Under the pieces are notes generated by a model, which saw nothing but the letters and a program-made list of their open reading frames with translations, was not told where the DNA came from and made no database searches. A program made the translations under genes and the position numbers. Positions 1,725 through 53,064 of a stretch of DNA of 63,060 nt are shown in pieces (the stretch's first letter is position 1; each line of letters starts with the position of its first letter). Source of the stretch: Elusimicrobia bacterium CG1_02_37_114. Lineage in GTDB: Bacteria; Elusimicrobiota; Endomicrobiia; CG1-02-37-114. Where the stretch lies: contig MNXB01000105.1 of NCBI GenBank assembly GCA_001871125.1, forward strand, positions 1 through 63,060, written 5' to 3'.

Positions 1725-1756
1725 CAGTAGGTTCTTTAGGAACTGGACGAATTCTC

Positions 1757-1785
1757 TTGACTTTACCCGTAAAAATAAGTATACT
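1757..1785 (+). promoter_or_regulatory. Sigma70-type promoter for the second ATPase
   Basis: TTGACT-17 bp-TATACT, followed by the palindrome ttattgcaataa (1787-1798). Confidence 0.55.
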
Positions 1786-1821
1786 ATTATTGCAATAACT
1801 GCAATAATAGTGAGGTAATTC

Positions 1822-3117
1822 ATGATTGTCCAGAGGGAACTGCTTAACCAGATTAAAATATTTATCAAAAGAAAGGAGTTTATTGCCATTACAGGTCCAC
1901 GTCAATGTGGGAAGTCAACTTTTCTGGAAATTATCAGGGATTATCTTATAAAAGAAATTAAAATTGACAGGGAATCCATCAATATACTGACCTTTGAAGA
2001 CAGGAAACTATTGGCACAGTTTGAATCAGACCCTGTTGAATTTGTGAATTCTTACCTATCACAAAATACCGGTAAAACCACTTATTTAATGCTTGATGAA
2101 TTTCAGTATGCCGAAGAAGGGGGACAGAAGCTTAAATTAATTTATGATACTGTTAAAAATGTCAAAATAATTATTACAGGTTCTTCCTCACTTGAAATTA
2201 AGGGATATATGGTTGGCAGGATTTTAACGTTTAACCTGTATCCCTTCAGTTTTAAAGAATACTTGAATGCAAAGGACAAACGGTTTGAAAAAATATACGT
2301 AGAAAAAAACAAAATGGTTCTTAACTGGTTATTCAAGCGTAAAAAACCGGTGCAAAAAATCGGACAGGACCTGTTTGCCGACGATTTTAATAAATTGTTT
2401 GAAAAATATTGTATATGGGGTGGTTACCCGGCAGTCGTTCTATCAAAAACTACTATTGAACGTAAAAAAGTGTTAAATGACATTTATAATAATTACCTTT
2501 TAAAAGATATAAAAGGATTACTTGAATTAACTACCGAACGCAACCTCGTTCTTTTAGCACAATTCATAGCTGCGCAAATCAGTAATATCCTTGTTTACCA
2601 GAACATGAGCCAAGCATCCGGATTAGAATTTCGGCAGTTAAAAAAGCATCTTAATATCTTACAAGAAACGTTTATTTGCAAAGAAGTTTCTCCATATTTT
2701 AAAAACAAACAAAAGGAATTAGTAAAAAACCCCAAAGCGTATTTTCTTGATTTAGGGTTCAGGAATAATTTGTTAGATAGCATGAATAATAATTTTATTC
2801 AACGGACAGATACCGGTGCTATTGTAGAAAACGTTATATTTATACGGTTAAGTGAATTATCTCAAGGAAGAGAAAGAATCAATTTCTGGCGGACCAAAAC
2901 AGGCAGTGAAATTGATTTTATATTTAAAATAAACGGTTATGTTGTACCGATTGAAGTAAAATATTCAAATTTTGACAGACCCCAGGTAACAAGAAGTTTC
3001 ATAGGTTTTATTGATACTTTTCATCCCAGACAGGGAGTTATCTTAACCAAAAATTATTGGGGTTTAATAAAACGTAATAATACTGAAATTTTGTTTGCTC
3101 CAGTTTATTATTTATAA
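1822..3117 (+). CDS. Second AAA_14/DUF4143 ATPase
   Basis: GPRQCGKST, LMLDEFQ, ITGSSS, EIDF..VPIEVK. Confidence 0.9.
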   Translation: MIVQRELLNQIKIFIKRKEFIAITGPRQCGKSTFLEIIRDYLIKEIKIDRESINILTFEDRKLLAQFESDPVEFVNSYLSQNTGKTTYLMLDEFQYAEEGGQKLKLIYDTVKNVKIIITGSSSLEIKGYMVGRILTFNLYPFSFKEYLNAKDKRFEKIYVEKNKMVLNWLFKRKKPVQKIGQDLFADDFNKLFEKYCIWGGYPAVVLSKTTIERKKVLNDIYNNYLLKDIKGLLELTTERNLVLLAQFIAAQISNILVYQNMSQASGLEFRQLKKHLNILQETFICKEVSPYFKNKQKELVKNPKAYFLDLGFRNNLLDSMNNNFIQRTDTGAIVENVIFIRLSELSQGRERINFWRTKTGSEIDFIFKINGYVVPIEVKYSNFDRPQVTRSFIGFIDTFHPRQGVILTKNYWGLIKRNNTEILFAPVYYL

Positions 3118-9032: not shown

Positions 9033-9578
9033 TTATATCCTGAATTTTTCCAGCAGTGTTCCAAGCGTATGTTTTATTTCGGTCAATTTTGTTTTTATTA
9101 ATGGCAAATCAGATGTGTTAATCAGTTCATCAAGTTTAGATTGAATACTGTCTATTTTTGCCTTATCATTTTTTATAGTTTCACGCAAACTGCCACACAT
9201 TTGCTGTATCTCATTGCCGATGTCCTTTAACTCGTCAGTTTTGCGTATATGTAATTGTGCTGTCAAATCGCCGTTTTGTATCATTTTTATCACTCTTTCA
9301 AAAGCATAGATGGGTCCGAATATTCTGTGAAACAAAAAAATACTTTCCAGTCCTGTCGCCAGAATTAATACAAACAATATTAATCCAAAATTTTGAAAAA
9401 AAGCTATCCATAAAGAATTTTGTTCACTGGTGCCCAGATGTTTATAAACAGAACTGTTTGTTATTGATGAGCATAATGTCAGATATATAAAGATAGACAT
9501 TAATACTACAGACATTACCGTGAAAAACATATACTTTATCTGAAGGTGTGGTTTGATAATAAAAGTTGTTCTTTGCAT
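9033..9578 (-). CDS. Small membrane protein with two TM helices and a HAMP domain
   Basis: Two hydrophobic stretches followed by HRIFGPIYAF..GDLT..IRKTDEL. Confidence 0.7.
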   Translation of the reverse strand: MQRTTFIIKPHLQIKYMFFTVMSVVLMSIFIYLTLCSSITNSSVYKHLGTSEQNSLWIAFFQNFGLILFVLILATGLESIFLFHRIFGPIYAFERVIKMIQNGDLTAQLHIRKTDELKDIGNEIQQMCGSLRETIKNDKAKIDSIQSKLDELINTSDLPLIKTKLTEIKHTLGTLLEKFRI

Positions 9579-9650
9579 TTTTATCTCCTTTGCCTTGCAA
9601 AGCCCCAGAGTATTGTTTTACTTCGTTTTATGAAGTAAAACATCGTGGGG

Positions 9651-10496
9651 CTAAATTTCAATGTTATCAATTAACCTCGTTTTGCCATCCCATACAGCAA
9701 TTAATATTCTTGCCGGTGAATAAAGTTTTCCTTTAATTTCATCTAATGTTTTAGAATTGCAGATTTTTACATATTGAATACGCAAACCCGGCACGCGTCT
9801 TATTTCGTTTTTTATATAGTTAACAATTTTGTCTGCTGAAAGTAGTTTTTTCTCATGGAAAAGTTTTTTAACTCTTAAAAGTATTCTGTAAATCTTACCT
9901 GCCCTGATTCGTTCATTTTTTGATAGACATAAATTCCTGCTTGACAGAGCAAGTCCGTCATTTTCTCTTATTGTTGGACAGGGAATGATTTTTACGGGGA
10001 AATTTAAGTCGTTTACCATTTTTTGTATAATCATCAATTGCTGGTAATCTTTTTCACCAAAATATGCTCTGTCAGGTTGTGTTATGTTAAATAGCTTTGT
10101 CACGACTGTTGTAACACCGCGGAAGTGCCCCTGCCTGAATTCTCCACATAATATGTTTGATAATTTTTCTACGGTAACATAAGATAGGTGATTGATATCA
10201 TACATTTCTTTTGGTGTTGGAGCAAAAACATAGTTAACTCCATATTTTTTGCACATTCTTACATCTTTATTAAAAGGACGGGGATAACGCAGATAATCTT
10301 CATTTGGACCGAATTGCGTTGGATTGACGAAAATTGACACGATTACACAGTCATTTTCCTTTCTTGCACGCTGAATCAAAGAGATATGCCCGCCATGCAG
10401 TGCACCCATTGTCGGAACAAGTCCTATGGTTTTATTGGCAGAATGCAGTTTTTTTGTAATTTTCTGCATTTCTGGAATTTTGTGTATTATTTTCAT
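9651..10496 (-). CDS. panC: Pantoate--beta-alanine ligase
   Basis: VPTMGALHGGH, FVNPTQF, FGEKDYQQ, DGLALSSRN, RLIDN; true start MKIIHK. The longer ORF start lies in a repeat. Confidence 0.95.
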   Translation of the reverse strand: MKIIHKIPEMQKITKKLHSANKTIGLVPTMGALHGGHISLIQRARKENDCVIVSIFVNPTQFGPNEDYLRYPRPFNKDVRMCKKYGVNYVFAPTPKEMYDINHLSYVTVEKLSNILCGEFRQGHFRGVTTVVTKLFNITQPDRAYFGEKDYQQLMIIQKMVNDLNFPVKIIPCPTIRENDGLALSSRNLCLSKNERIRAGKIYRILLRVKKLFHEKKLLSADKIVNYIKNEIRRVPGLRIQYVKICNSKTLDEIKGKLYSPARILIAVWDGKTRLIDNIEI

Positions 10497-10881: not shown

Positions 10882-12948
10882 ATGAAGAAAGAAAAGAATT
10901 TCTGTATAGTAAGAAATGTTTATCCGGAATTGGATGGCGGCAGATACCCGGTCAAAACAGAGATAGATAGAATTTTCATTGTTTCGGCAGATATCGTTTT
11001 TTCTGAAAATAAAATGCTCTCCGTTTCTGAAGTATACCTGAAATATCGCAATAAGCGCCTATCTAAAAAGTGGAATAATGTTGAGATGCAAAATATTGGG
11101 TGGCAGGGTCGCCAGTCACAACGAATAAGTTGTGACATGCCTTGGCGAGCCACCGAGTCGGTGAGGTGGCGGGGAGAGATAAAATTTGATTTACCTGGCA
11201 TCTATGAGTATACGATTGAAGTAGAGTCAGCTCTGCCCCCGAATAAAATCGTCAGGATAGAATATGAGCATATCCTTGAACTCGTTGTTGATTTACCGCA
11301 AGCAAGATTTGCCAACTGGTATGAAATGTTTCACAGGTCCCAGGGTAAAATTCCTAATAAGAGTGCAACATTTAAAGATTGTGAAGAAAGACTTATTGAT
11401 ATAAAAAGTATGGGGTTTAATGTCATATACTTGCCTCCAATACATCCCATCGGAAGGACAAATCGTAAAGGTCCCAATAACAGTGTTAATGCAGGAACTG
11501 ATGACCCGGGCTGTCCCTGGGCAATAGGTAATGAGCAGGGGGGGCATAAGTCTGTCAATCTCGAACTGGGAACTCTTGATGACTTTGAGAAATTTGTCCA
11601 TAGAGCAAAAGAATTTGGAATAGAAATTGCACTTGATATTGCGTTTAACTGTTCGTATGACCATCCGTACGTAAAAGAACATCCGGGCTGGTTTTTCTGG
11701 ACCCCCGACGGACAAATTAGATTTGCGGAAAACCCGCCCAAAAAATACGAAGATGTCTGCATGCTGAACTTTTACCCGAAAGACAGGCAGGAGATGTGGG
11801 ATGAAATGAAGGATATTTTTGTTTTCTGGATAAATTGTGGTGTAAAAATATTTCGGGTGGATAATCCGCATACAAAACCTACTGAATTCTGGACCTGGGT
11901 AATAAAGGAAATAAAGAAAGAGTACCCGGAAGTAATATTTTTTGCCGAAGCATTTACATATTATGAAAAGTTAGAGGGATTGGCAAAGGCTGGATTTACG
12001 CAGTCATATACTTATTTTACCTGGAGGAACAATAAGAACGAACTTCTGGAATATTTCACCAAACTTACACAGAGTGATTTAAGACAGTTCCTTCGTGCGA
12101 ATTTATTTGTTAACACTCCTGATATTTGCCCGCCGATTATACAGACAGGAGGCGTACCGGCATTTAAGATGAGAGCGGCATTGGCTTCTACTCTTTCCTC
12201 GCTGTATGGTATCTACAATGGTTATGAACTGTGTGAAGCGGATGCTTTTCCAGGGACGGAGATATACAGAAATTCAGAGAAGTATCAGTATAAGGTCTGG
12301 GACTGGAATAGACCGGGTAACATTAAGGACTATATCTCCAAACTCAACAGGGTAAGAGAAGAAAACCCTGCATTACATTATTATGATAATTTAAGATTTC
12401 ATGAATCAACGAATGATAATGTTATGGTTTATAGTAAAATATCGCCCGATGGAAAGAATATTATCATTACTGTAGTGAATTTAGATGTCAAAAATATCCA
12501 GGACAGCAGATTGACTCTACCTCTTGAAGAATTTGGTATCGGTTCCGGTGAAGAATACAATGTGCTGGAACTTATTACAGGGAATGAATATACATGGAAA
12601 GGAAGAGAAAACTACGTGAGGCTGGACCCCTATATTGAACCGGTATATATTTTTAGAGTTGAAAAATCTAAAAAATCTAAACAGTACAAAATAGATTCCT
12701 CGTCGGAATCTTCCAGACTTGCAAAACAGCATGGCGAGGAGTTTTTCAGACTCAGGGAAAAGGTTATAAAAGACTATGATTTTTATGCCAGAAGAGACTT
12801 TGTTTCTTTATATTATAGTGAGATTATCCGGCGCGTATATACAGGTCCGACATATGACAGAACTTACGAAGAAGAAATAAACAAAGTCAGCAGACAATAT
12901 GGCTATCTGACAATTATTAATGCTTATATGACCACCGCCGGACATTAG
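10882..12948 (+). CDS. glgE: Alpha-1,4-glucan:maltose-1-phosphate maltosyltransferase (GH13_3)
   Basis: YLPPIHPIG..RKGPNN, GGHKSV, ENPPKKYED, FRVDNPHTKP, FFAEAFT, GFTQSYTYFTWRN, NLFVNTPDI. Confidence 0.92.
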   Translation: MKKEKNFCIVRNVYPELDGGRYPVKTEIDRIFIVSADIVFSENKMLSVSEVYLKYRNKRLSKKWNNVEMQNIGWQGRQSQRISCDMPWRATESVRWRGEIKFDLPGIYEYTIEVESALPPNKIVRIEYEHILELVVDLPQARFANWYEMFHRSQGKIPNKSATFKDCEERLIDIKSMGFNVIYLPPIHPIGRTNRKGPNNSVNAGTDDPGCPWAIGNEQGGHKSVNLELGTLDDFEKFVHRAKEFGIEIALDIAFNCSYDHPYVKEHPGWFFWTPDGQIRFAENPPKKYEDVCMLNFYPKDRQEMWDEMKDIFVFWINCGVKIFRVDNPHTKPTEFWTWVIKEIKKEYPEVIFFAEAFTYYEKLEGLAKAGFTQSYTYFTWRNNKNELLEYFTKLTQSDLRQFLRANLFVNTPDICPPIIQTGGVPAFKMRAALASTLSSLYGIYNGYELCEADAFPGTEIYRNSEKYQYKVWDWNRPGNIKDYISKLNRVREENPALHYYDNLRFHESTNDNVMVYSKISPDGKNIIITVVNLDVKNIQDSRLTLPLEEFGIGSGEEYNVLELITGNEYTWKGRENYVRLDPYIEPVYIFRVEKSKKSKQYKIDSSSESSRLAKQHGEEFFRLREKVIKDYDFYARRDFVSLYYSEIIRRVYTGPTYDRTYEEEINKVSRQYGYLTIINAYMTTAGH
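11109..11170 (+). repeat. Two-hairpin element G, copy 1, in-frame inside glgE
   Basis: tcgcca-gtcacaac-GAATAA-gttgtgac-atgcct-tggcga-gccacc-GAGTCGGTGA-ggtggc. Confidence 0.8.
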
Positions 12949-12956
12949 GAGGCAGA

Positions 12957-14096
12957 ATGAAAGTAACGTATATAGCGAATGAATATCCACCGAATGTTTA
13001 TGGAGGAGCAGGGGTACACTTGAAATATTTATCAAAAGAGATTTCAAAATTAATGGATGTTGAGGTGAAATGTTTTGGCGGCGGTGAAAGAATGGAAGGT
13101 AACATTAAAGTCACCGGTTATGAAATGTGGGATAGATTAACAGGCGGGTATGACCCAAGGTTCAAAAGTGCACTCGGAGCTGTTTCTATAAATTTAGCGA
13201 TGGCCAGGGATGGCATTGATTCAGAAATAGTTCACACGCACACCTGGTATGCAGCATATGCAGGATATCTGGCAAAGCTGCTCTATGGAACAAAGTTCGT
13301 GTTGACCTGCCATAGTCTTGAACCGTTACGTCCCTGGAAGAAGGACCAGCTGGGCAGTGCGTATAATCTCAGTACCTGGTTAGAAAAAGTCGGTGTTGAA
13401 TCCGCTGACAAAGTTGTTGCTGTTTCATCATTTATGAAAGAAGATATTCTGAAGTACTTTAATATAAAGGAAGAAAACCTTGCCGTTGTCCATAATGGAA
13501 TAGATTTAGACATATGGAAGCGCAAACCATTAAGCGACTCTCTAAAAAAAGAGTATGGTATAGAAGACGACTATATACTTTTTGTTGGCAGACCGACGCC
13601 GCAGAAAGGCATGGAATATTTGGTAGAAGCTGCAGATGACATTGATGCGCAGATAGTAATGGGGGCTGCGGGCGCTGATACTAAAGAATACGAAGAAAGA
13701 ATGAAATCAAGAGTTGCAAAGAAAAAGAACATTTTGTGGATACATAAACTTCTGAAGGAAGATGAATACGTGCAACTCTACAGCAGTGCAAAAGTTTTTG
13801 TATGTCCATCAGTATATGAACCGTTCGGGATAATAAACCTGGAAGCGATGGCTTGCAAAACACCCGTTGTTGCAAGTGCAGTTGGCGGGATAAAAGATGT
13901 CGTTATACCGGAGAAAACAGGTCTGCTTGTCCAGCCGGCAGAACCCAAACAAATCTCCTCCGCAGTTAATAGATTGTTAAAAGATAAAGGACTATCTGAG
14001 AGAATGGGCGAAAACGGTAGAGCGAGAGTTGAAGAAAAATTCAGCTGGACAAAAATCGCTCAACAGACGAAAGAATTGTACGAATCCTTGATTTAA
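12957..14096 (+). CDS. glgM: GT4 glycosyltransferase, GlgM/GlgA Corynebacterium-type (maltose-1-phosphate synthase-like)
   Basis: EYPPNVYGGAGVH, HTHTWYA, HSLEPLRPWK..QLG, YEPFGIINLEAMAC; adjacent to glgE. Confidence 0.8.
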   Translation: MKVTYIANEYPPNVYGGAGVHLKYLSKEISKLMDVEVKCFGGGERMEGNIKVTGYEMWDRLTGGYDPRFKSALGAVSINLAMARDGIDSEIVHTHTWYAAYAGYLAKLLYGTKFVLTCHSLEPLRPWKKDQLGSAYNLSTWLEKVGVESADKVVAVSSFMKEDILKYFNIKEENLAVVHNGIDLDIWKRKPLSDSLKKEYGIEDDYILFVGRPTPQKGMEYLVEAADDIDAQIVMGAAGADTKEYEERMKSRVAKKKNILWIHKLLKEDEYVQLYSSAKVFVCPSVYEPFGIINLEAMACKTPVVASAVGGIKDVVIPEKTGLLVQPAEPKQISSAVNRLLKDKGLSERMGENGRARVEEKFSWTKIAQQTKELYESLI

Positions 14097-14164
14097 ACGG
14101 CAGCATAGTTGAATGCATGGGGCCGTTTATCCCAGCGAATAGTCCGAATTCGGACTGCGAGGGG
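14094..14164 (+). repeat. Bipartite element H, copy 1
   Basis: taaacggc..gccgttta-tcccagcgaatag-tccgaattcgga-ctgcgagggg; homologous to 32752-32841. Confidence 0.7.
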
Positions 14165-14207
14165 TAATTTTATTAATGGTTCCAAAATTTTTTCCGATTT
14201 CGGACTC

Positions 14208-14237
14208 TTGACAACCACTGAAAAATTTTGGTATAAT
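14208..14237 (+). promoter_or_regulatory. Consensus sigma70 promoter
   Basis: TTGACA-18 bp-TATAAT, with gggag SD before ATG 14264. Confidence 0.7.
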
Positions 14238-14263
14238 AAAACCAATGAAGGGAGATATAACAA

Positions 14264-14524
14264 ATGGCAATAGTAAATACTTTAAAGATTTATGAAGATT
14301 TAAGGACAAAACTTCAAGATGAGCCAGCAAAAGCAATTGCTGAAACTATTGAGCGTTCTCTTGAAGAATACCGAGAAAACCAGAAGGAGTTTCTCGTAAC
14401 GAAGACAGAGTTTAGAGAAACAATTGCTAATTTACGCGCAGAACTTATCAAATGGATGTTTATTTTCTGGATTGGACAAATAGGTGTAATAACAGGGATA
14501 CTTTTTGCATATTTTAAGAAGTAG
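14264..14524 (+). CDS. DUF1640-like small coiled-coil protein with C-terminal TM helix
   Basis: FLVTKTEF..LRAELIKWMFIFWIGQIGV pattern, good SD. Confidence 0.7.
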   Translation: MAIVNTLKIYEDLRTKLQDEPAKAIAETIERSLEEYRENQKEFLVTKTEFRETIANLRAELIKWMFIFWIGQIGVITGILFAYFKK

Positions 14525-14825
14525 ATTTAGAAATACTGAAATTAAATTGAATAAGTCGGGGGAAGTATTAGTTCGGGGGCAAGGAAAATTATTCCAAGAG
14601 TTATTCAAACAGCTGAAATTCACAGATGAAGAAATTGAAAAATTACTAGGTGAAAATTATAAGCGTCCCTTTTTTTTCAAGTTCAAATGATTTGTTTATA
14701 CGAAGTTATCGTAGTTCCATCTTTTACTATGTTTTACCGTCTTATATGCAAGCCGTTGCCGTTGACAAGTTTTTTTGGCGTATTGTGCTGTTGATAACTT
14801 CGTAAAAAAATTTTCCGCCCTCCTC

Positions 14826-14854
14826 TTGACAACGATAAATTATATTGTTATAAT
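14826..14854 (+). promoter_or_regulatory. rRNA operon promoter
   Basis: Perfect TTGACA-17 bp-TATAAT about 200 nt before 16S. Confidence 0.8.
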
Positions 14855-14884
14855 ATATGGTTTGGAAAATAGAATTTTATACAA

Positions 14885-14895
14885 TGTTCTTTGAA
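14885..14895 (+). promoter_or_regulatory. rrn leader boxA antitermination site
   Basis: tgttctttgaa; second copy in the ITS at 17016-17027. Confidence 0.6.
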
Positions 14896-14968
14896 TTACT
14901 TTGAATTATTTGTCGCATTCTAATGAGCATACTATATAGTTAACATTTCAAATTCTTGAAAAAAAGTA

Positions 14969-15036
14969 TAAAAGGGTAAACCCTTAATTCCTGGGTAAAC
15001 CCTTAACTCCTGGAGTTAATCCTTCAGGATTTTACT
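14969..15036 (+). repeat. Family B copy in the pre-16S leader
   Basis: Same modules as 4780-4868. Confidence 0.85.
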
Positions 15037-15052
15037 TGAAAATTTTTAAATT

Positions 15053-16628
<1,576 letters not shown>

Positions 16629-16738
16629 TAAGGAGTCAAAGTTTTAGATTTGATTCTAGGTCGGTTCATTAGCTATACTAGTGTGCTCATCGGATTGCGA
16701 TAAGTTGTTAAATAATTGGTAACTATTCAGTCAACCAG

Positions 16739-16814
16739 TAGGAATTAAATCTTTAGCCTTTTAATAAAAGCCTAAAGGCTAAATTCCTATAAAAGCCTAA
16801 AGGCTAAATTCCTA
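16739..16814. repeat. Family C cluster in the ITS: one degenerate inverted copy plus two tandem 25-bp units
   Basis: taaaagcctaaaggctaaattccta at 16765-16789 and 16790-16814. Confidence 0.85.
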
Positions 16815-16827
16815 TTTTTAAAAGAAG

Positions 16828-16901
16828 GGGCCTATAGCTCAGTTAGCTAGAGCGCACCCCTGATAAGGGTGAGGTGAGAGGTGCAATTCCTCTTAGGCCC
16901 A
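16828..16901 (+). tRNA. tRNA-Ile(GAT)
   Basis: gggccta/taggccc acceptor stem, caccc-ctGATaa-gggtg anticodon arm; CCA not encoded. Confidence 0.95.
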
Positions 16902-16927
16902 TTAGTAAAAAGTTCTTGACATGGCAC

Positions 16928-17000
16928 GGGGATGTAGTTCAGCTGGGAGAACATCCGGTTTGCATCCGGAAGGTCAGGGGTTCGATCCCCCTCATCTCCA
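16928..17000 (+). tRNA. tRNA-Ala(TGC)
   Basis: ggggatg/catctcc acceptor stem with G3:U70, tccgg-ttTGCat-ccgga, gttcga T-loop. Confidence 0.97.
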
Positions 17001-17015
17001 CTTTTGATTGAATAT

Positions 17016-17027
17016 TGTTCTTTGACA
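17016..17027 (+). promoter_or_regulatory. ITS boxA
   Basis: tgttctttgaca. Confidence 0.6.
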
Positions 17028-17067
17028 TTTTTTTATATTAAAGTAGGTATCAGCGTCTTAAAGAATT

Positions 17068-17106
17068 CATCCCGATGTCAGATTTCGTGAGAAATCTATC
17101 GGGATG
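17068..17106. repeat. Family A hairpin in the ITS before 23S
   Basis: catcccgat..agatttc-gtga-gaaatct..atcgggatg. Confidence 0.75.
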
Positions 17107-17634
17107 GGATGAAATGATATGGCCAAGTAAGAAAGGGCATACAGTGGATCTCTTGGTGAAGGTCGTTGATGAAGGCCGTGGTAAACTGCGATAAGGTGCG
17201 GTGAGGAGCAAACATCCTGTGATCCGCACATTGCCGAATGGGGAAAACCGCCCCGATGCAAATCGGGGCACTATGATATGAATACATAGTATCATAGGAA
17301 TAACCCAGGGAAGTGAAACATCTCAGTACCTGGAGGAAAAGAAATCGAAAGAGATTCCCTTAGTAGTGGCGAGCGAACAGGGAAGAGCCTAAACTTGTCC
17401 CGATGCAAATCGGGATGAGGGTTGTAGGGTTTTAACAGTCCCGCTTCGGTGGGACAGGAAGTTACAAATGGAGTCTATAGTTGAATGGTCCTGGAATGGC
17501 CAACCATAGATGGTGAAAGTCCAGTAGATAAAATAGATTTCACTTCCTCGTTAGAATTCCTGAGTATCATTGAACACGTGAAATTCAGTGAGAATCCGCC
17601 CGGACCATCGGGCAAGGCTAAATACGAACCTTCA

Positions 17635-17665
<31 letters not shown>

Positions 17666-19242
17666 ATGAAAAGAACCCCTGATGGGGAGTGAAATAGAAC
17701 ATGAAACTGTATGTCTACAAGCAGTCAAAGCACTATGTCCTGATTCCGAGCAATCGGGAGAAGGAAATGTGCGATGGCGTGCCTGTTGAAGAATGATCCG
17801 GCGAGTTACTTTAACGACCAAGTTTAAGTCCGGACTGAATAGGTCCGGATGAAACGTAGGGAAACCGAGTCTTAATAGGGCGAATAGGTCGTTGGAGTAG
17901 ACCCGAAGCCAAGTGATCTATCCCTGGCCAGGTTGAATCCTGCGTAATAGCAGGAGGAGGACCGAACCATTTAGTGTTGCAAAACTACTGGATGAGCTTG
18001 GGATAGGGGTGAAAGGCTAATCTAACTTGGTGATAGCTGGTTCTCCCCGAAATAGCTTTAGGGCTAGCCTGATAGTTTGAATTCGAGGGGTAGAGCACTG
18101 GATAATGTAGGACCTGCAACCCAGGTTCCGAATTTAACCAAACTCCGAATACTCGAATGGACACTATTGGAGTCAGTTTGTGCGGGATAAGCTGCACATG
18201 CAAAAGGGGAACAGCCCAGACCATCGGTTAAGGTCCCAAAATTGAAGTTAAGTGGAAAAGGACGTATTATTGCAAAGACAGCTAGGAGGTTAGCTTAGAA
18301 GCAGCTATCCTTTAAAGAGTGCGTAACAGCTCACTAGTCAAGCGATTTTGCGCCGAAAATGTCCGGGGCTAAACTTCATACCGAAACCATGGCTGTCCCG
18401 ATGTAAGTCCGAATTTGGACTATCGGGACGGGGTAGGGGAGCGTTCTATCAGCAATGAAGATAGACCGAGAGGACTATTGGAGTTGATGGAAGTGAGGAT
18501 GTCGGAATAAGTAGCGATAATGGTTGTGAAAATCAACCACGCCGAAAGCCCAAGGTTTCCTTGAGCAATGTTCGTCAGCTCAGGGTTAGTCGGTCCTAAG
18601 CTGAGGCCGAAAGGCGTAAGCGATGGATATCCGGTTAATATTCCGGAACCATTCTGGAGTCGTTAGTCACTAACTTTGTGCGCATTAGAGTATGGTTATC
18701 TCCGTGTTGAATTACGGGGTTTAATCCCGCCGTGAGGCGGGAGAATACGACCCTCGAGAAATCGGGGGGAAGTAACTGAATCTGGTGCCAAGAAAAGCAA
18801 AGTTTAGGAGTCTCCGGGATGACCGTACCGCAAACCAACACAGGTGGGTAGGGTGAATAACCTAAGGCGCGCGAGTGATTTGCCGCTAAGGAACTCGGCA
18901 AAATTGCCCTGTAACTTCGGGATAAAGGGTTCCCCCGATTTATCGGGGGATTCAATAAAGAGTCTCATGCGACTGTTTAACAAAAACACAGGTCTCTGCT
19001 TAAATCGTAAGATGATGTATAGGGACTGACGCCTGCCCGGTGCTAGAAGGTCAAGAGGAGTTGTCATCTCTGACGCAAGTTGGGGAGAAGCGATGAATTT
19101 AAGCCCTAGTAAACGGCGGCCGTAACTATTGTTTGGACCACAGTAGTTGTAAAATCTGGCTATATGCTGGAAAATCCTGGTATGCTAACAGTACTCCTGT
19201 TAATGTTGATAAGAACAGGACGTGACAATCTGTTAGATAGGG

Positions 19243-19303
19243 CTGCGTATTCGCACGAATAAGTGCGAATGAGTTACGCAGGACGGCGAGAAGGTGAGCC
19301 GGC
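19243..19303 (+). repeat. Element G, copy 2, inside the L1917 intron
   Basis: ctgcgta-ttcgcac-GAATAA-gtgcgaa-tgagt-tacgcag-gacggc-GAGAAGGTGA-gccggc. Confidence 0.8.
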
Positions 19304-19340
19304 GGGACAATCAGCAGGAAAGACCTGAAATGAGGGCTCC

Positions 19341-19835
19341 ATGCGAACAGAAACAGGCTATTACTTAGCAGGTTTTGCAGACGGAGAAGGAAGTTTTAAT
19401 ATTTCTTTCAGACCGAGGCAAGATTATAAGTTACCGTGGAAAATCTCTCTCTGCTTTAACATTTCCCAGAAGGATAAAGTTATTCTGTCGTTATTCAAAC
19501 GTTATTTGGTTTGTGGAACATTAAGGAGCAGACCCGATGGTGTTTGGTATTACGAAGTAAATAACTTCAATGCGATATGGGAAAAGGTAATACCTTTCTT
19601 TAAGAAATATAGATTCTTGTCCGCTAAGAAAAAACGTGACTTCTCAAAATTTTGCCAGATAGCAGAAATGGTAAAAAAAGGGGAGCATCTTAAAGAAGAT
19701 GGTATCAGAAGAATTGTTGAAATAAGACGAGAGATGAATGACGGTGGTAAACGCAAGTATAGCAATACGGAGATCCTAAGTAAATTTCAGGAATCCCCAG
19801 AGACTATACGCCAGATCCCGATAACTCGGGAATGA
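19341..19835 (+). CDS. Single-motif LAGLIDADG homing endonuclease (L1917 intron)
   Basis: YYLAGFADGEGSFNI, FNISQK, IPFFKKY. Confidence 0.93.
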   Translation: MRTETGYYLAGFADGEGSFNISFRPRQDYKLPWKISLCFNISQKDKVILSLFKRYLVCGTLRSRPDGVWYYEVNNFNAIWEKVIPFFKKYRFLSAKKKRDFSKFCQIAEMVKKGEHLKEDGIRRIVEIRREMNDGGKRKYSNTEILSKFQESPETIRQIPITRE

Positions 19836-19890
19836 TATAGTCCGGTCTCCGATGAAAATCGGAGTTAACATAAACGAACGGTCCTAAGGT

Positions 19891-20563
19891 TAGTTTAATG
19901 CTAGCCTGTTCCGGTAGTAATATCGGAAGTAATATTTAACTATATGCGGGGAACTCCCCAAAAAATGTTTGATACTAGTCTATTCATTTGAATGGGACAG
20001 TAAAAAATCAACATACATGAGGACAATCCGCAGGGAAGGCATATTATGGATAATAATATGAACCCTCAGAGACTACACGTTGAATATCCGAATTGCAACA
20101 GCTTGACTCCTGACTGGATTGTGGGATTCGTAGACGGGGAAGGTTGTTTTCACATAGGGATAAATAAGAATGACGAAGTTAAATCCGGGTACCAGGTTTT
20201 ACCCGAATTGACAGTCGTCCAACACAAACGAGACATTCAACTTCTTTATCGATTACGCACATTTATGAAATGTGGCGTGGTAAGAAGTAATCATGGAGAC
20301 CGTTTCTGTTGGCGTGTCAGATGTCTTAAAAACCTTGTGGAAATAATTCTTCCATTTTTTGAAAAGCATCCATTGAAATCAAAAAAAAATATTGAATTTC
20401 ACAGATTTGCAAAGGTGGTGCGAATGATGGAGAAAGATAAACACCTTACCCAGGAAGGATTCCAGAAGATTATTAAAATTGCGGAAGAGATGAACAGGCA
20501 AGAGCAAAGAGAAATTCGGATAAAGATATAGTCCACACTTCGATGAAAATCGAGGATTTTGTG
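19891..20563 (+). mobile_element. Group I intron at 23S position L1931
   Basis: Follows ctaaggt (U1931), ends in G before agcgaaattcc; Q aatccgcag, R tcagagactacacg, S aagatatagtcc. Confidence 0.93.
20046..20531 (+). CDS. Single-motif LAGLIDADG homing endonuclease (L1931 intron)
   Basis: WIVGFVDGEGCFHI, TVVQH, ILPFFEKHPL. Confidence 0.93.
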   Translation: MDNNMNPQRLHVEYPNCNSLTPDWIVGFVDGEGCFHIGINKNDEVKSGYQVLPELTVVQHKRDIQLLYRLRTFMKCGVVRSNHGDRFCWRVRCLKNLVEIILPFFEKHPLKSKKNIEFHRFAKVVRMMEKDKHLTQEGFQKIIKIAEEMNRQEQREIRIKI

Positions 20564-20610
<47 letters not shown>

Positions 20611-21053
20611 CGAAATGAGAACTGTCTCGGCGGCAAACTCGGCGAAATTGTGGTGTCCGTGAAGACGCGGACTACCTGCGGATAGACGAAAAGACCCCGT
20701 GGAGCTTTACTATAGCTTAATATTGAATTACGGGGTAGGATGCGTAGCATAGGTGGGAGGCTTTGATTCCCCGATTTTGGTCGGGGAGGAGCCGCCAGTG
20801 AAATACCACCCTTTCTGCTTTGTGGTTCTAATTCTAGTCCGTGAAACCGGACGGAAGACAGTGTTAGGTGGGTAGTTTGACTGGGGCGGTTACCTCCCAA
20901 AGAGTAACGGAGGCGTTCAAAGGTACCCTCATCCTGAATAAAAGTCAGGAGTTGAGTGCAAAGGCATAAGGGTGCTTGACTGCGAGTCCGACGGGACAAG
21001 CAGGTACGAAAGTAGGACTTAGTGATCCGGTGGTTGCGTATGGAAGTGCCATC

Positions 21054-21090
<37 letters not shown>

Positions 21091-21121
21091 TATCGAGCCC
21101 GAGAGTCCATATCGACGGCTC

Positions 21122-21162
<41 letters not shown>

Positions 21163-21657
21163 GAGCAGGTCCCAAGGGTTTGGCTGTTCGCCAATTAAAG
21201 CGGTACGTGAGCTGGGTTCAGTACGTCGTGAGACAGTACGGTCTCTATCTTCCGTAGGTGTTGGAAACTTGAGGGGAGCTGGCCTTAGTACGAGAGGACC
21301 AGGCTGGACAAGCCTCTGGTGTGCCTGCTATCGCGTCAGCGGTATTAGCAGGGTAGCCATTGCTTGGATAGAATAACCGCTGAAAGCATCTAAGCGGGAA
21401 GTCAACCCTAAAACAAGGTTTCCCTCCCGATGAAAGTCGGGACTGAAGGTCACCAGAAGACTACTGGTTTTATAGGTCGGGTGTGTAAGTCCAGTAATGG
21501 ATTGAGCTAACCGATACTAATCGACCGTGCGGCTTGGCCATATCTTTTGATCCAAAACATAAAAGTTTAAATGTACAGGACGTGGAAATTATTTTTGTAT
21601 TTCCTTGATTTTCCTGCCTTTTACTTTTTATAAAACAATCATTTGTTGAATTTAATT

Positions 21658-21777
21658 TCTCGGTAGTTTTACCGGTGGGGCAACACCTGTTCCCATTCCG
21701 AACACAGCAGTTAAGCCCACCAGGGCCGATGGTACTTGGTGCCAATCCGCACCCGGGAGAGTAGGTTACTACCGGGA
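21658..21777 (+). rRNA. rrf: 5S rRNA
   Basis: cacctgttcccattccgaacacagcagttaag, gccgatggtac, gggagagtagg; terminal stem. Confidence 0.96.
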
Positions 21778-21820
21778 TTATCAAAAATGTTTTCTTGGCG
21801 TAAATTATAAAAGCATTTTT

Positions 21821-21877
21821 GCAAGGCTGAAAGCCTTGCCCTACAAATATTATTGTAGGGCAACCCTTTAGGGTTGC
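21821..21877. repeat. Back-to-back pair of GTAG-type REP palindromes (REPIN-like)
   Basis: Reverse complement of tGTAGggcaaggctttcagccttgc, then aatattat, then tGTAGggcaaccctttagggttgc. Confidence 0.7.
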
Positions 21878-21922
21878 GGATTTCTTGGGGAGTTTTAAAT
21901 ACATAATCAATATTTAATATCT

Positions 21923-22675
21923 TTGTTTTGTATAATCTGCTGTTTCAGTGGTATCCTTTATAGTTCGGAAACCCTGGATACAGCAGAACAGATTTCAAAA
22001 GGGAAATTTCGCACAGTTGTTTATTACACACAGACGAAGGCAAAACCAACCTTTCAGATGGTGGATTTTTCAACGACAACCGGTTGGGGGATAAATAAGG
22101 TTGATGGAGATAGTTCCTTTGGAAACGTAGTCGTTAAACTTGTGTTAAATCCTTTTGATAAATTGAATTGGTGGGCAAGAGCGGGAATGGTATCTGATTA
22201 TAAATTAGGGGTCCCTTCAACCGATACTCCTAAAATTGAATACACAAATATCTCTTCTTATAATGGCTATACTATTGGAGCGGGAGCAAAATATCAGGTT
22301 TTTCCTCAGACAGATTTCAATTGCGGTATTTGTTTGGACTTTGGTGTTGTTTATACTAATTACATTTTTAATAGAAAATATCAGGAAAATATCGGATATT
22401 CTGATTTATCAGGTACTAAATTTGAAGATACTGAATTTCACGCAAAATTTAATCTCAGCAGGAAGATTCGCAAGACAGAGCCTTATGGCGGCGTTAGTAT
22501 TTACAGAAACTGGTATAAATTTGGAAGCAATTCAGGGACAAAAGACAATATAAATGTTTTCGCAGGTTTAAAAGTCAAACTGCGTCAGTTGAAATGGTTA
22601 ATGTGTGAGGCGAATCTGATTGGCGAAACCAGCCTGTCAGCTGGTTTTTGTATGGCTGTGGGTTCACACGAATAA
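21923..22675 (+). CDS. Putative outer-membrane beta-barrel protein (start uncertain)
   Basis: Hydrophobic signal-like N-terminus, alternating aromatic beta-strand pattern (YTIGAGAKY, EPYGGVSIY, LSAGF). Confidence 0.55.
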   Translation: MFCIICCFSGILYSSETLDTAEQISKGKFRTVVYYTQTKAKPTFQMVDFSTTTGWGINKVDGDSSFGNVVVKLVLNPFDKLNWWARAGMVSDYKLGVPSTDTPKIEYTNISSYNGYTIGAGAKYQVFPQTDFNCGICLDFGVVYTNYIFNRKYQENIGYSDLSGTKFEDTEFHAKFNLSRKIRKTEPYGGVSIYRNWYKFGSNSGTKDNINVFAGLKVKLRQLKWLMCEANLIGETSLSAGFCMAVGSHE

Positions 22676-22716
22676 GTGTGAACAAGATCCACAGGACGGC
22701 GAGTCGGTGAGCCGTC
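22656..22716 (+). repeat. Element G, copy 3; its GAATAA loop supplies the ORF stop codon
   Basis: ctgtgg-gttcacac-GAATAA-gtgtgaac-aagat-ccacag-gacggc-GAGTCGGTGA-gccgtc. Confidence 0.85.
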
Positions 22717-22726
22717 GGGGAAAGCT

Positions 22727-23260
22727 ATGGAACAAACAGCTCAAAGAAAATACAAGTATGACTATAACCAGATTGCTAAGGGATTTGAAAGTATATCGGG
22801 TGTGATATTTACAGAATATAGTGGACTAACAGTAGGCGAAATGACAGAACTACGCGGGAAATTAAAAAAGCAGGCAGCTAAATACATTGTTGTAAAGAAT
22901 AGAATCACATCAGCAGTTTTGAAGCAACTTAAAATAACTGATTTGAATGATTTATTTAAAGGGCCCACCGCATTACTTGTTATTAAAGAAAGTATTGAAG
23001 AACCAATAAAGATACTTGTAGATTTTTCAAAAGAGCATGAGAACCTGAAGATAAAAAAAGGACTTTTTTCAGGGAGAATATTTGAACACGATAAAATAGT
23101 TAGTATTGCAAAACTGCCGAATAGAAATGTTTTGATAGCGGAGCTGGCATCATTATTGAAAACAAATTTAGTGAATATTTTAACTGTCTTACAGGCGCCT
23201 ATGAGAGATTTTATTAATGTGTTAGAGCAGATAAAAGTAAAAAAAGAGAAAGGAGAGTGA
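22727..23260 (+). CDS. rplJ: 50S ribosomal protein L10
   Basis: [24 protein letters not shown]; located before rplL. Confidence 0.92.
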
Positions 23261-23707: not shown

Positions 23708-26700
23708 ATGAAACAAATAAGTTTTGCTAAACTAAAACCGTTAGTTAGTTTACCTGATTTACTTGAGTTACAAAAAAATTCTTTTGAGGATTTCTTACAG
23801 GCAAACGTTGCCCCGAAAGACCGTAAAAAGCAGGGATTGCACCAGGCGTTTCTTGATGTTTTTGGCGATGAATCTAAAGGTGAAGGGTTAGTAACTTCTG
23901 ATGGCAGTTTAACACTGCAGTATCTTTATTATGTTATTGATGAACCCAGACGCACTCCCGATGAAGCAAGGGATAGGGATATGACATACGAATCACAATT
24001 AAAAGTATGGTTCAGGTTTTTACAGAAACTTGAAACAGGCAAAATCAAGGAGTTGGCAGAACAGGAAATTTATCTCTGTGAGTTACCCGTTATGACTGAA
24101 AGCGGTTCGTTTGTCATTAATGGTGCAGAGAGAGTTGTTGTGGCACAGATACACAGATCCCCGGGAGTCATATTTGAAGAAGATGAAGAGAAAAAGGTTT
24201 CACAGTTAGGGAAAAAACTTTATAAGGCAAGTGTTATTCCCTACCGTGGTGCCTGGCTTGATTTTGAATATGATTTAAATAACATTTTATACGTACACAT
24301 TGATAAAAAACGTAAAATACCTGTTACAACGTTATTGCGGGCAATAGGAATTGAATCCAATGAAGAAATTATCAAATTATTCTATACAACGGAAACTTTA
24401 AACAAGAGACAATTTGAACATGCTGAGACAAGAGTCCTTGCAGAAGATGCGGTTGACAGAAAAACAGGCGAAGTTATAAGAGAAACAGGACAGGAAATAC
24501 GCAAAGAACATATTAATATCCTTAAAGAAAAAGTTGAAGAGATAGAAGTTATCAAATTTGACCCCATTCTAAACGACATTACTGTCCTGTATACTTTGCA
24601 GGCTGACCCCGCCAGGACAAGAAAGGAAGCAGTTGATATAATATATAAAATTCTCAGGACAGCTGGATTTATAACACCAGAGATTGCGAAAGATTATCTT
24701 GATAATCTTTTGTTTAAACCAAGGAAATATGGCCTGACAAAAGTTGGTCGTTACAAATTAAATAAAAAACTCGGTAGCATACTCGGGGAATTAGAGGAAA
24801 AGCATAAGGATTTTAATTTTACCGTACCTTCCGAGAAGAAACATACTTTGACTAAAGAAGATATCATCGCCACCATTAAATACATAATTAATCTAAATAA
24901 TGGAGCCGGCGGTGAGATTGATGATATTGACCATTTAGGTAATCGCAGAATACGTGCGGTTGGTGAACTTCTTGAAAATCAGGTACGAATAGGTTTAATC
25001 AATTTAGCAAGATTTACCCGTGACAGGATGAACGCTGCTGATAAGAAATCACTGATCACTCCACGGAATGTAGTTAATCCCACATCTTTGGTTATCTTTA
25101 TAAACAGGTTTTTTGGTACTTCACAATTATCGCAATTTTTGGACCAGACTAATCCACTTGCAGAAATAACGCACAAGAGAAGATTCAGTGCACTTGGACC
25201 CGGTGGACTTCATCGTAAACGTGCAGGGTTTGAGGTACGGGATGTCCATTATACACACTATGGAAGGATATGCCCGATTGAAACACCGGAGGGTCCCAAT
25301 ATTGGTCTTATTACTTCAATGGCATGTTATGCCAGGGTGAATGAATACGGGCTTATTGAAACGCCATATTGTAGAGTAGCCAATGGCAAATTATCCGATA
25401 AAGTTGAATATATGACTGCTGATCGTGAAGATGAATATGTCATTGCCCAGGCTAATACTGAACTTGATAGAAATAATCGCATAGCAAAAAAATCAGTTTC
25501 CTGTATGTATCGGGGAGATGTAAAAGTTGTTGCTCCTCAGAAAGTTGATTTTATGGATATTTCACCCAAACAGGTCGTTTCACTTTCTACAGCTCTTATT
25601 CCTTTTCTGGAACATGATGACGCTAACAGGGCGCTCATGGGTTCAAATATGCAACGTCAGGCAGTCCCTTTGTTTATTACTGAAGAGCCTCTTATTGCCA
25701 CCGGCGTTGAAGAAAAAATTGCAAAGGATTCTTATGCAGTAATAACAGCTCAGCAGTCCGGAGAAGTGGTGTCAGTTACTGCAAATCAAATTGCTGTTTA
25801 TAACGACGACGATAAAGTTGATATCTACAGATTGAAGAAATACATTCGGACCAATCAGGATACCTGTATCAATTTTATTCCAATAGTTAGTAAGGGAGAT
25901 AAAGTAAAAAAAGGGGAAGTTATTGCTGATGGTCCGGGAACATCTAACGGTAAAATAGCTCTCGGCAAAAATGTCCTGGTAGCATTTATGTCCTGGGAAG
26001 GATATAATTTTGAAGATGCAGTAGTAATGAGTGAAAGACTTGTACGTGAGGATATTTTTACTTCTGTTCATATTAAGGTGTTTAGAATTGAAGCGAGGGA
26101 TACTAAAATTGGTCCTGAAGAGATTACACGGGATATTCCTAATGTAGGGGCCGATGATTTACTAAACTTAGATGAAAGTGGTATTGTAAGAATGGGTGCT
26201 GAGGTGGGTCCTGGAGATATATTGGTGGGTAAAACCGCACCTAAAGGCGAACAGCAGGTAACAATGGAGGAAAGATTACTTAAAGCGATATTCGGTAAAA
26301 AGGCAGAAGATGTTGTTGATGAATCATTGCGTGTTCCACCGGGTGTCAGGGGTAAGGTTATAGGTATAGAAATATCTGTACGCTGGGAGAAAATGACCAG
26401 AAAAAACGAGGCGAAGCGATTGGAAGAAATTAATGCTACGTTCAAAAATTTAGCTAAAGATTTGAAAGAGAAATCTCAAAATGCAGTTAGCCAGAAACAG
26501 GATAAGGAAGAACGGGAAAAAATAAAAAAATACTACGCACAGAAAGAGAAGGAATTGGAAGAAAAGAAAAAAAAGGAGCAGAAGCAGATTGAACGCGGAG
26601 ACGAATTGCCTATTACCGTGAATAAAGTTGTCAAAGTTTATATATCAGCCAGACGAAAAATACAGGTTGGTGATAAAATTGCCGGTCGCCATGGCAACAA

Positions 26701-27469
26701 AGGTGTTGTAGGGAAAATACTTCCTGTTGAAGATATGCCTTACCTACCTGACGGCACTCCTGTTGATATGATTCTTTCACCGTTATCCGTTCCTTCCAGA
26801 ATGAACGTTGGCCAACTTATGGAAACCATGCTTGGTTGGGCAGCAAAGTTTTTAAACGTATCAATGATATGTCCTGTTTTTGAAAGTGCTACTGAAGAAG
26901 AAATTATAGAAAAAGTTCGTGAAGCAAAGACATTCCTGCGATCAAAAGAAGTTCCTGAGAAATACCTGCCTACGGATGACTGTCGCATAACACTTTATGA
27001 CGGACGAACCGGCGAACCATTTATGGAAAAAATCACAATTGGATATATGTATATGATGAAATTAGGACATTTAGTTGAGGACAAAATACATGCAAGGTCC
27101 ACGGGCCCGTATTCACTTATTACAAGACAACCTTTAGGCGGCAAAGCCCAGTTCGGAGGGCAGAGATTAGGCGAGATGGAGGTATGGGCATTAGAGGGAT
27201 ACGGGGCTGCACATACACTGCAGGAATTCCTTACCGTAAAAAGCGATGATGTTATAGGCAGGACCAGAGTTTATGAATCAATAATTAAGGGAGAAGTATT
27301 TTCTGAGACGGGAGTACCCGAGTCTTTTATAGTACTGGTAAGAGAACTGCAGGGATTAGGTTTGAATATAGAATTGTTACATAGTAGCAGAGGTGATAAA
27401 GAAATAAGAGAAGTTAAAGAATCCAGGCCAGAACCTGTAAAGGCAAGCGTCCCCATTAAAACATTATGA
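23708..27469 (+). CDS. rpoB: RNA polymerase beta subunit
   Basis: [45 protein letters not shown]. Confidence 0.99.
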
Positions 27470-34933: not shown

Positions 34934-34947
34934 TGGAGGTAAAAAAT

Positions 34948-53003: not shown

Positions 53004-53064
53004 GTCTCGTTTATAATTTTAGAATTATTTTCTGAAGCAGTAAGTGGGTAAAAAAGATGAGACA

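Follow-up and report, generated by a model that had tools for sequence, protein, structure and literature searches.

A contig of Elusimicrobia bacterium CG1_02_37_114 (GenBank assembly GCA_001871125.1, contig MNXB01000105.1, positions 1 to 63,060; this whole stretch of 63,060 nucleotides is referred to below as the window) carries three copies of a two-hairpin element that belongs to a previously uncatalogued family of about 61–65 nt. The module is an insertion, which homologous sites lack exactly. Its landing sites are G-runs, nothing beyond the G's is duplicated, it is multi-copy and sometimes tandem, and several phyla have it. On balance, the family probably consists of non-autonomous insertion elements whose folded single strand is mobilized in trans, with (G)GG as the target. 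An earlier note on this DNA had placed three copies of one fold at 11109–11170, 19243–19303 and 22656–22716, and both the coordinates and the folds were confirmed. The copies and the genes around them are as follows.

11109–11170, + strand: copy 1 of the two-hairpin element, within glgE and read through in frame; flanked by GGG at 11106–11108 and GGGG at 11171–11174; covariance model score 79.9 bits.
19243–19303, + strand: copy 2, inside the L1917 group I intron; flanked by GGG at 19240–19242 and 19304–19306; 75.5 bits.
22656–22716, + strand: copy 3, between an orphan open reading frame (ORF) and rplJ; 77.8 bits.
10882–12948, + strand: glgE, host of copy 1, encoding a GlgE-type maltosyltransferase of 688 aa (Pfam GLGE_C, Alpha-amylase and GlgE_dom_N_S).
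19130–19864, + strand: first 23S group I intron, host of copy 2, at site L1917 of the 23S rRNA gene after ...GUAACUAU; LAGLIDADG ORF at 19341–19835; 36 bits, below the Rfam gathering score.
21923–22675, + strand: orphan ORF of 250 aa, the last 8 codons and stop of which lie within copy 3.
22727–23260, + strand: rplJ (ribosomal protein L10, by Pfam), starting 10 nt past the end of copy 3.

Each window copy folds into a 6-bp outer stem, a 7–8-bp inner stem closed by C-GAAUAA-G and, on the 3′ side, a bulge of 5–6 nt; a second hairpin, with 6 bp and a 10-nt loop of sequence GAG-NN-GGUGA, abuts them. The three copies have minimum free energies between −26.7 and −31.5 kcal/mol; relative to dinucleotide shuffles, their z-scores lie between −3.8 and −5.0. 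As the reverse strands fold with comparable energy, the strand cannot be told from this measure alone. Three matches to the pattern CGAATAAG-N15-40-GAGNNGGTGAG are present in the window, where 0.00 would be expected, and an unfiltered covariance model search of the window returned the three copies only, at 75–80 bits (E ~1e-16). The next-best match, of 16.9 bits at 35964–36029, lies inside the presumed tuf gene (ORF 34933–36150, labeled from gene order alone, a 692-aa ORF preceding it) and was taken as chance rather than as a fourth copy. Copies 2 and 3 are 79% identical, and the 4 of 14 stem-1 pairs that differ between them are all compensated, whereas copy 1 shares 52–55% identity with the other two and has largely different stems. 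The earlier claim that the stems differ almost entirely between copies is therefore right for copy 1 and wrong for copies 2 and 3, and the second stem said to be common to copies 2 and 3 carries one A.G mismatch in copy 2. All three window copies stand between a 5′ GG and a 3′ GGG, as had been reported.

At site L1917, five homologous introns align base for base with that of the window except for one 64-nt gap. The empty sites read TTAGATA-GGG-AYMATCAGCAGG and the filled window site reads GGG-(61 nt)-GGG, the inserted block being 64 nt when one of the two flanking GGG is counted in. The covariance model found no copy in these five introns. Their endonucleases are 81–86% identical to that of the window and are drawn from a large set of relatives, at 80–88% identity, of the LAGLIDADG protein encoded in the first intron. 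The possibility that the element is a native periphery of the L1917 intron was rejected because of its absence from the five homologues. Copy 2 had been placed in this intron upstream of Q, and it indeed lies 38 nt 5′ of the LAGLIDADG ORF. In GlgE, 22 residues stand between two conserved positions where 11 orthologues have 2–3, in line with the claim that about 20 aa are added in frame (~19–22 aa, absent from the 11 orthologues). No empty glgE site was found among close relatives, as all full-length (688-aa) members of the 90% cluster carry the insertion, and a search for an empty site of copy 3 through orthologues of ORF 21923–22675 found that none exist. In locus L126, adjacent copies of a 77-nt repeat are one filled and one empty, with the insertion splitting a G5 run. 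Sites that lack the element are thus at hand in the L1917 introns, the GlgE orthologues and the paralogous repeat of L126. In this last locus (9509–9911), the module is enclosed by direct repeats, 77 and 82 nt long, that are nested.

Of 51 copies, 49 have the 5′ G and 44–51 the 3′ GG. When the 5′ flank was compared with the 3′ end of the element in ~130 distinct copies, the likeness comprised only 2–3 G's and was not above that of shuffled pairings, and a longer target duplication or microhomology was rejected on this ground. The element has no terminal inverted repeats, its 5′ and 3′ ends not being reverse complements, and no ORF of its own. At copy 1, the preceding 10 nt (11099–11108, GGTGGCAGGG) match 11165–11174 (GGTGGCGGGG) at 9 of 10 positions, giving two W-x-G motifs in GlgE; no comparably long flank match is seen at the other copies.

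In copy 3, the TAA of loop 1 (22673–22675) is the stop codon of ORF 21923–22675, which agrees with the earlier reading that one copy supplies a TAA. The end of the copy is 10 nt, and its 3′ G-run 6 nt, from the ATG of rplJ at 22727. A terminator-like hairpin at 22618–22647 (AAACCAGC-CUGUCA-GCUGGUUU, then UUGU) occupies the last codons of the ORF directly before copy 3, which makes the true end of the ORF and the transcript that carries copy 3 uncertain. A close relative of copy 3 was found between yggS-like and proC-like genes in L134 (13552–13623; = L071, L146), where the upstream ORF enters the module and stops at the loop-1 TAA (..CSHE-stop, against ..GSHE-stop in the window) and the next gene starts 5 nt on.

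A scan with the exact pattern over one genome per species gave 47 loci, five of which (L013, L016, L033, L038 and L042) were left out by eye as chance matches without the architecture; the remaining loci (42 of 42) score with a covariance model built from 32 sequences. The same pattern in metagenomes returned 96 stretches, 80 of them listed as loci. Covariance model matches well beyond chance were obtained, 50 in genome loci and 103 in metagenome loci, which corresponds to ~150 further copies in public genome and metagenome contigs. The genome loci are mostly from metagenome-assembled genomes (MAGs) of Nitrospira, with others from Elusimicrobiota, uncultured Clostridia, Firestonebacteria, Planctomycetia and one deltaproteobacterial MAG. 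Several single MAGs have 4–5 copies, and tandem arrays with an 87-nt period are present in L100 and L127. Copies found by the model only show loop variants, namely CGAAUAAG changed to UGAAUAAA with a compensated closing pair, GGGUAA or GAGUAA for GAAUAA, and 3′ CGG changed to CAG. None of 22 pattern matches in viral contigs passes the covariance model, and a phage origin was discarded.

Neither the window nor five loci gave a match to the element at the gathering score of any Rfam 15 family. More permissive searches around the copies in L010, L100 and window copy 3 (E up to 10) and around window copy 2 (E up to 1) also gave no meaningful match, and with no covariance model matching, catalogued RNA families (ribozymes, riboswitches, leaders including the L10 leader, IS605-orfB and HEARO RNAs) were rejected as identities. 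The earlier note had been unable to match the element to hammerhead, twister, pistol or a known REP class; no known ribozyme model matches it, and searches of the literature by sequence and keyword found no description of it. All matches come from uncultivated organisms, which may explain the lack of cataloguing. A reading of the copies as chance resemblances, or as native portions of the genes that host them, with no distinct element, could draw on there being only three copies in 63 kb and on the 79% identity of copies 2 and 3, which a local duplication could produce; set against the zero expectation, the E-value of the model, the ~150 further copies in other phyla and the homologous introns and orthologous proteins without the element, its probability is negligible.

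The fold is borne out by covariation in two independent sets. In the genome set (32 sequences, aligned with plain MAFFT), 90% of cells are paired and 17 of 20 pairs are changed on both sides, the best shifted register reaching 42%, and in the metagenome set (88 distinct sequences), the alignment of which was fitted to the model and favours the structure, 90% of cells are paired, 18 of 20 pairs are changed on both sides and the best shifted register reaches 46%. No shuffle attained the observed values of the genome set in four of five measures, and 11 of 500 did so for pairs changed on both sides; for the metagenome set none did. In the mutual information only the three helices stand out, so a pseudoknot was rejected. 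A pairing of loop 2 with the tail found in Clostridia-like contigs (UCACCGACU and AGUCGGUGA are complementary) was rejected as well, as there is no covariation with the two variable loop positions.

About 25 unpaired nucleotides are near-invariant: the 5′ G, GAAUAA, the bulge A-N-G-U-Y-U (its G being present in 49 of 51 copies), GAG-NN-GGUGA and the 3′ GG. Part of this loop invariance is imposed by the search pattern, and the model-only copies show slight loop variation. Fixed loops together with co-varying stems, a combination that had been reported from the three window copies and is seen in both larger sets, indicate that some machinery reads the folded single strand. Taken with the insertion sites and the ~150 copies, this makes the earlier designation, a mobile structured RNA or single-stranded DNA motif, the right class.

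It is possible, if on the unlikely side, that the module serves as a functional RNA domain: a 'plug-in' that binds a protein, the ribosome or a ligand, acts in cis on transcripts and could affect translation initiation or coupling, processing or stability; selection would then be on the RNA, and spread by duplication or recombination would be secondary. Conservation of the loops across phyla speaks for such a role, as do two inner-stem positions that are tandem G.A/A.G in some copies and Watson-Crick pairs in others. On the other hand, the precise presence and absence of the module at homologous sites favours insertion over an ancestral regulator, and copies are also found in a coding sequence, an intron and truncated tRNA copies. 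G.U pairs outnumber A.C pairs by 44 to 22 overall, an excess which indicates that the top strand is the folding one; the counts are 30 and 11 in the high-GC set and 14 and 11 in the AT-rich set, and the want of a G.U excess in the latter again counts against a functional RNA.

Orientation relative to genes differs between lineages. At AT-rich loci (tandem and duplicate loci counted) the module is sense to the upstream gene in 54 cases against 3 and to the downstream gene in 49 against 6, a bias of ~90–95% that is above the 62–67% sense-strand excess of G-runs in the window. ATG-initiated ORFs of at least 150 aa that start within 70 nt downstream of a module number ~18 in the sense and 2 in the antisense orientation. 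Both observations favour the functional RNA domain, whereas the random orientation at high-GC loci (39 sense and 42 antisense) does not; the gene calls at these loci look sound, since adjacent calls share a strand 97 to 48. The claim that all copies are sense consequently stands for the window and the AT-rich lineages and falls for the high-GC ones. It is also confounded with replication direction: the cumulative GC skew climbs across the whole window and nearly all genes are on the + strand, so that 'sense' and 'leading-strand sequence' are inseparable there. Individual loci point opposite ways, in that the two modules of L078 run in opposite directions and are each sense to one of two divergent genes, and L003 has one module antisense to both neighbours. 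Taken together, the orientation and G.U data are compatible with a folded transcript and with folded top-strand DNA alike.

A split Shine-Dalgarno (SD) sequence, in which UAAGGAG of loop 1 and GGUGA of loop 2 would pair with the 3′ end of 16S rRNA, was rejected, because in the window copies loop 1 is followed by U and not by GGAG and the 16S rRNA ends CCUCCUUUCU; this failure is a further point against the functional RNA domain. Copies that are read through as protein (GlgE and an ORF through the L027 module) argue against obligatory self-cleavage.

The packaging of the module varies by lineage, which marks the module as a conserved core with interchangeable surroundings. In Clostridia-like contigs it has a tail, GUCACCGACUGAAGCGAAGCGAAAGGAGG, and is inserted directly after the SD sequence of the host; as the tail ends in an SD sequence of its own, the spacing to the start codon is kept. 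The SD-like repeat at both ends of this type belongs to the tail of the element, and the GCGTAAGGAGG tail variant has unrelated 5′ flanks. Tandem arrays of 2–4 units stand directly ahead of SD and ATG, and the start of the tail, UCACC, pairs with GGUGA after the SD and co-varies with it (UCCCC:GGGGA, UCGCC:GGCGA and UGACC:GGUUA). The arrays and the co-varying pairing are what a functional RNA would lead one to expect; in contrast, the downstream genes of the Clostridia-like modules, judged by their start sequences, are mutually unrelated (dnaK-, yggT-, HU-type-like and others), and the downstream genes weighed against a common regulatory role also include proC-, phoU- and tldD-like ones, with only rplJ and the LAGLIDADG ORF confirmed by Pfam.

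In tRNA operons of Elusimicrobiota and related lineages, the module is joined to a 5′ tRNA fragment whose break point is a GG in the D-loop, anticodon arm or variable region (L021, L043, L009, L017, L004 and L036), and an intact tRNA follows 100–150 nt downstream. Past the module there is often a reverse-complement or direct copy of the flank, such as the 38-nt direct repeat in L117 and the inverted copies in L043, L009 and L117. At a pseudo-tRNA-Glu locus common to several contigs, the second hairpin shows a compensatory change (CCCGC/GCGGG to CCAGC/GCTGG), which supports selection on the RNA. In Nitrospira the module is nested in a unit of ~200 nt with inverted termini (CAGGATGCTCAAAAAGG...CCTTTTTCAGCATCCTG), and in a fourth group it lies within a conserved unit of ~130 nt.

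Several smaller features accompany these contexts. Truncated tRNA look-alikes, each with the 5′ part of a tRNA, then the module, then a reverse-complement tRNA segment, all upstream of the intact tRNA, were seen in L043 (720–850), L009 (7110–7240), L117 (3845–3970), L004, L076, L087, L106 and L140, and the tRNA-Glu look-alike is kept in at least 6 contigs with differing spacers. In L017 a small palindrome (TCCGCCGCGGCGGA) sits in the D-loop of the pseudo-tRNA. A hairpin CCCGAT-nnn-ATCGGG replaces the 5′ strands of the first two stems of the module in L007 (2295–2371), L106 (1246–1311) and L116 (1852–1917), and free copies of this hairpin occur nearby in L024 and L072.

The tRNA chimeras also bear on a spread through RNA, in which a reverse transcriptase would copy the small RNA, switch template at GG microhomologies and leave a cDNA that recombines into the chromosome. 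The GG at both junctions, the cutting of tRNA 5′ parts at GG, the direct or inverted duplication of flanks (L117, L043 and L009) and the sense copies in highly expressed transcripts (rRNA intron, tRNA operons, upstream of rplJ and of dnaK-like genes) would all suit such a route. We nevertheless regard it as quite improbable, as no reverse transcriptase gene was found near any copy, neither poly-A nor another hallmark of retro-elements is present, high-GC lineages show random orientation, the microhomology is at most 2–3 nt, and all steps of the mechanism would have to be assumed. An RNA-level mobile 'plug-in', with loops that some universal machine of the host, such as the ribosome, RNA polymerase or a processing enzyme, would recognize and with spread via RNA or transcription-coupled insertion, is a doubtful proposition in our estimation. 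If it were true, the module would be a bacterial counterpart of SINEs with its own stop codon, its own SD sequence and, in one lineage, an SD-sequestering helix.

The partner genes named in the earlier note, an HUH/RAYT or a reverse transcriptase gene, were not found next to the copies. Clustering of the ORFs within 2 kb of the copies at ~120 loci gave only housekeeping families and spurious repeat translations, and no serine recombinase, Y1/HUH or reverse transcriptase gene recurred near the copies in this range. The window ORFs annotated outside the mid-window ribosomal-protein cluster, housekeeping genes plus one transposase, include no serine recombinase; that sole transposase is of the IS3-type DDE kind (62107–62892; rve, HTH_21), located at the contig end and with no evident link to the module.

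The module shares features with several known systems. BOX elements of Streptococcus pneumoniae are modular intergenic repeats with a tandemly iterated middle module and a stable transcript fold, located near gene starts; their sequence and architecture differ from those of the module, and they are restricted to one genus. Rickettsia palindromic elements (RPEs) are ~100–150 bp long, occur in one genus only, have no cross-phylum loop conservation and are unrelated to the module in sequence. They resemble it in being structured repeats that are tolerated in frame in protein genes and in RNA genes. The likeness of copy 1 to the SpCas9 tracrRNA (motifs AAUAAGG and CACCGAGUCGGUG) was treated as coincidence, its CACC part lying in a variable stem. 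A classical DDE-type MITE (a miniature transposable element with inverted repeats) was rejected, since the module has no terminal inverted repeats, only G's are repeated, and inverted termini are found only on the larger Nitrospira unit of ~200 nt. RPEs and similar small mobile sequences have been reviewed (PMC2229807).

Elements of the IS607 family lack terminal inverted repeats and target site duplications, have (G)GG as target and carry GG at their termini (PMC6188088). The same junction anatomy is seen at the empty L1917 site and in ~130 copies of the module. Unlike the module, which is 61–65 nt long and encodes nothing, IS607 is ~2 kb and encodes the serine transposase TnpA, with or without TnpB; it moves as duplex DNA circles with several subterminal TnpA-binding repeats, whereas the module relies on two conserved hairpins. 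By eye, the two loops could pass for a degenerate direct repeat, with CGAA-UA-AGG and CGAG-NN-GGU at a distance of 32 nt.

Like the miniatures of IS200/IS605 (PATEs) and the REP/RAYT system, the module is short, non-autonomous and hairpin-based, has neither terminal inverted repeats nor target site duplications, inserts after a short specific sequence, reaches high copy number, forms tandem or composite clusters and is strand-asymmetric. It differs from both in the conservation of its loops across phyla and in that no Y1/HUH gene was found near its copies. REPs are imperfect palindromes of 20–40 nt with a GTAG-type 5′ tetranucleotide and are extragenic, whereas the module consists of two unlike hairpins, has no GTAG and is also found in a coding sequence and an intron. 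In IS608 the left and right hairpins are similar and the cleavage sites are 10–19 nt from the hairpin, whereas the hairpins of the module are unlike and its ends abut the stems. The element does not show the full set of features of the IS607, IS200/IS605 or REP families, and is best filed as a new cross-phylum variant of small non-autonomous structured repeats.

For the non-autonomous insertion element that we favour, an enzyme encoded elsewhere in the genome would move the element in trans and would recognize the folded top strand. The fold may juxtapose the two G-flanked ends, so that strand exchange at a GG would be possible. The junctions look like those of IS607, and the hairpin dependence and strand asymmetry look like those of single-strand HUH systems (IS200/IS605 miniatures, REP/RAYT). 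We lean to a single-strand rather than a duplex mechanism because 61 bp is too short for duplex synapsis. After insertion, the host transcript would simply carry the element, which presents one open frame in GlgE and would occupy a tolerant region of the intron; upstream of rplJ, it would give the prior ORF its stop codon and put a G-run at the SD position.

Several points weigh against this interpretation. No mobilizing enzyme was identified, the IS3-type DDE transposase being the only one among the annotated window ORFs. Transposase recognition sites normally diverge quickly, and loops this nearly identical in distant phyla are unusual for them; a conserved host factor or a function of the RNA would account for such loops better. 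The sense bias in AT-rich lineages exceeds the G-run asymmetry, and the Clostridia-like tail helix that co-varies with the downstream SD region looks like an RNA-level feature. In addition, the two hairpins are dissimilar, unlike the left and right ends of IS608, and three flanking G's are gained at L1917 where a simple exchange at GG would add two.

Structured repeats of small size, REP, RPE, BOX and MITEs among them, normally stay within one genus and change quickly. In the module, on the other hand, ~25 unpaired nucleotides are near-invariant across Nitrospirota, Elusimicrobiota, Clostridia-like bacteria and other phyla and the stems are rewritten, which is the signature of a specific conserved reader. 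This reader could be a recombinase that acts on hairpins and exchanges GG, an HUH enzyme or an RNA-binding machine of the host, and its identity would add a new mobilization system or a new cis-acting RNA function. The element also matters for the annotation of MAGs, as it adds residues to enzymes, shifts stop codons, replaces SD sequences, occupies rRNA introns and makes truncated tRNA look-alikes.

The window has a G+C content of 34–47% and is a contig of an uncultivated bacterium, and the best homologues of its GlgE are from Elusimicrobia. Around the copies lies an rRNA operon with 16S, tRNA-Ile, tRNA-Ala, 23S and 5S genes. The 23S gene has two group I introns, each with a LAGLIDADG ORF; the second (19881–20555, with its ORF at 20046–20531) is located ~14 nt beyond the L1917 site and reaches the Rfam gathering score, and the spacing between the two introns is only 16 nt. 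The operon is followed by the orphan ORF, rplJ, rplL and a long ORF at 23708–27469, presumably rpoB by position only. The orphan ORF has no Pfam match and no homologue outside its own cluster; its sequence, ending ..SAGF, reads like that of a small beta-barrel outer-membrane protein. No Pfam-recognizable rplA precedes rplJ in the stretch 21778–22727, where the orphan ORF is the sole gene in between. Two tandem paralogous ATPase genes (AAA_14 and DUF4143) are found at 321–3117. At 53044–54561, a gene of 505 aa with DUF4062 and HATPase_c_4 stands between mreC and mreD, where it oddly breaks up the mreBCD operon, and is possibly of a defence type or mobile.

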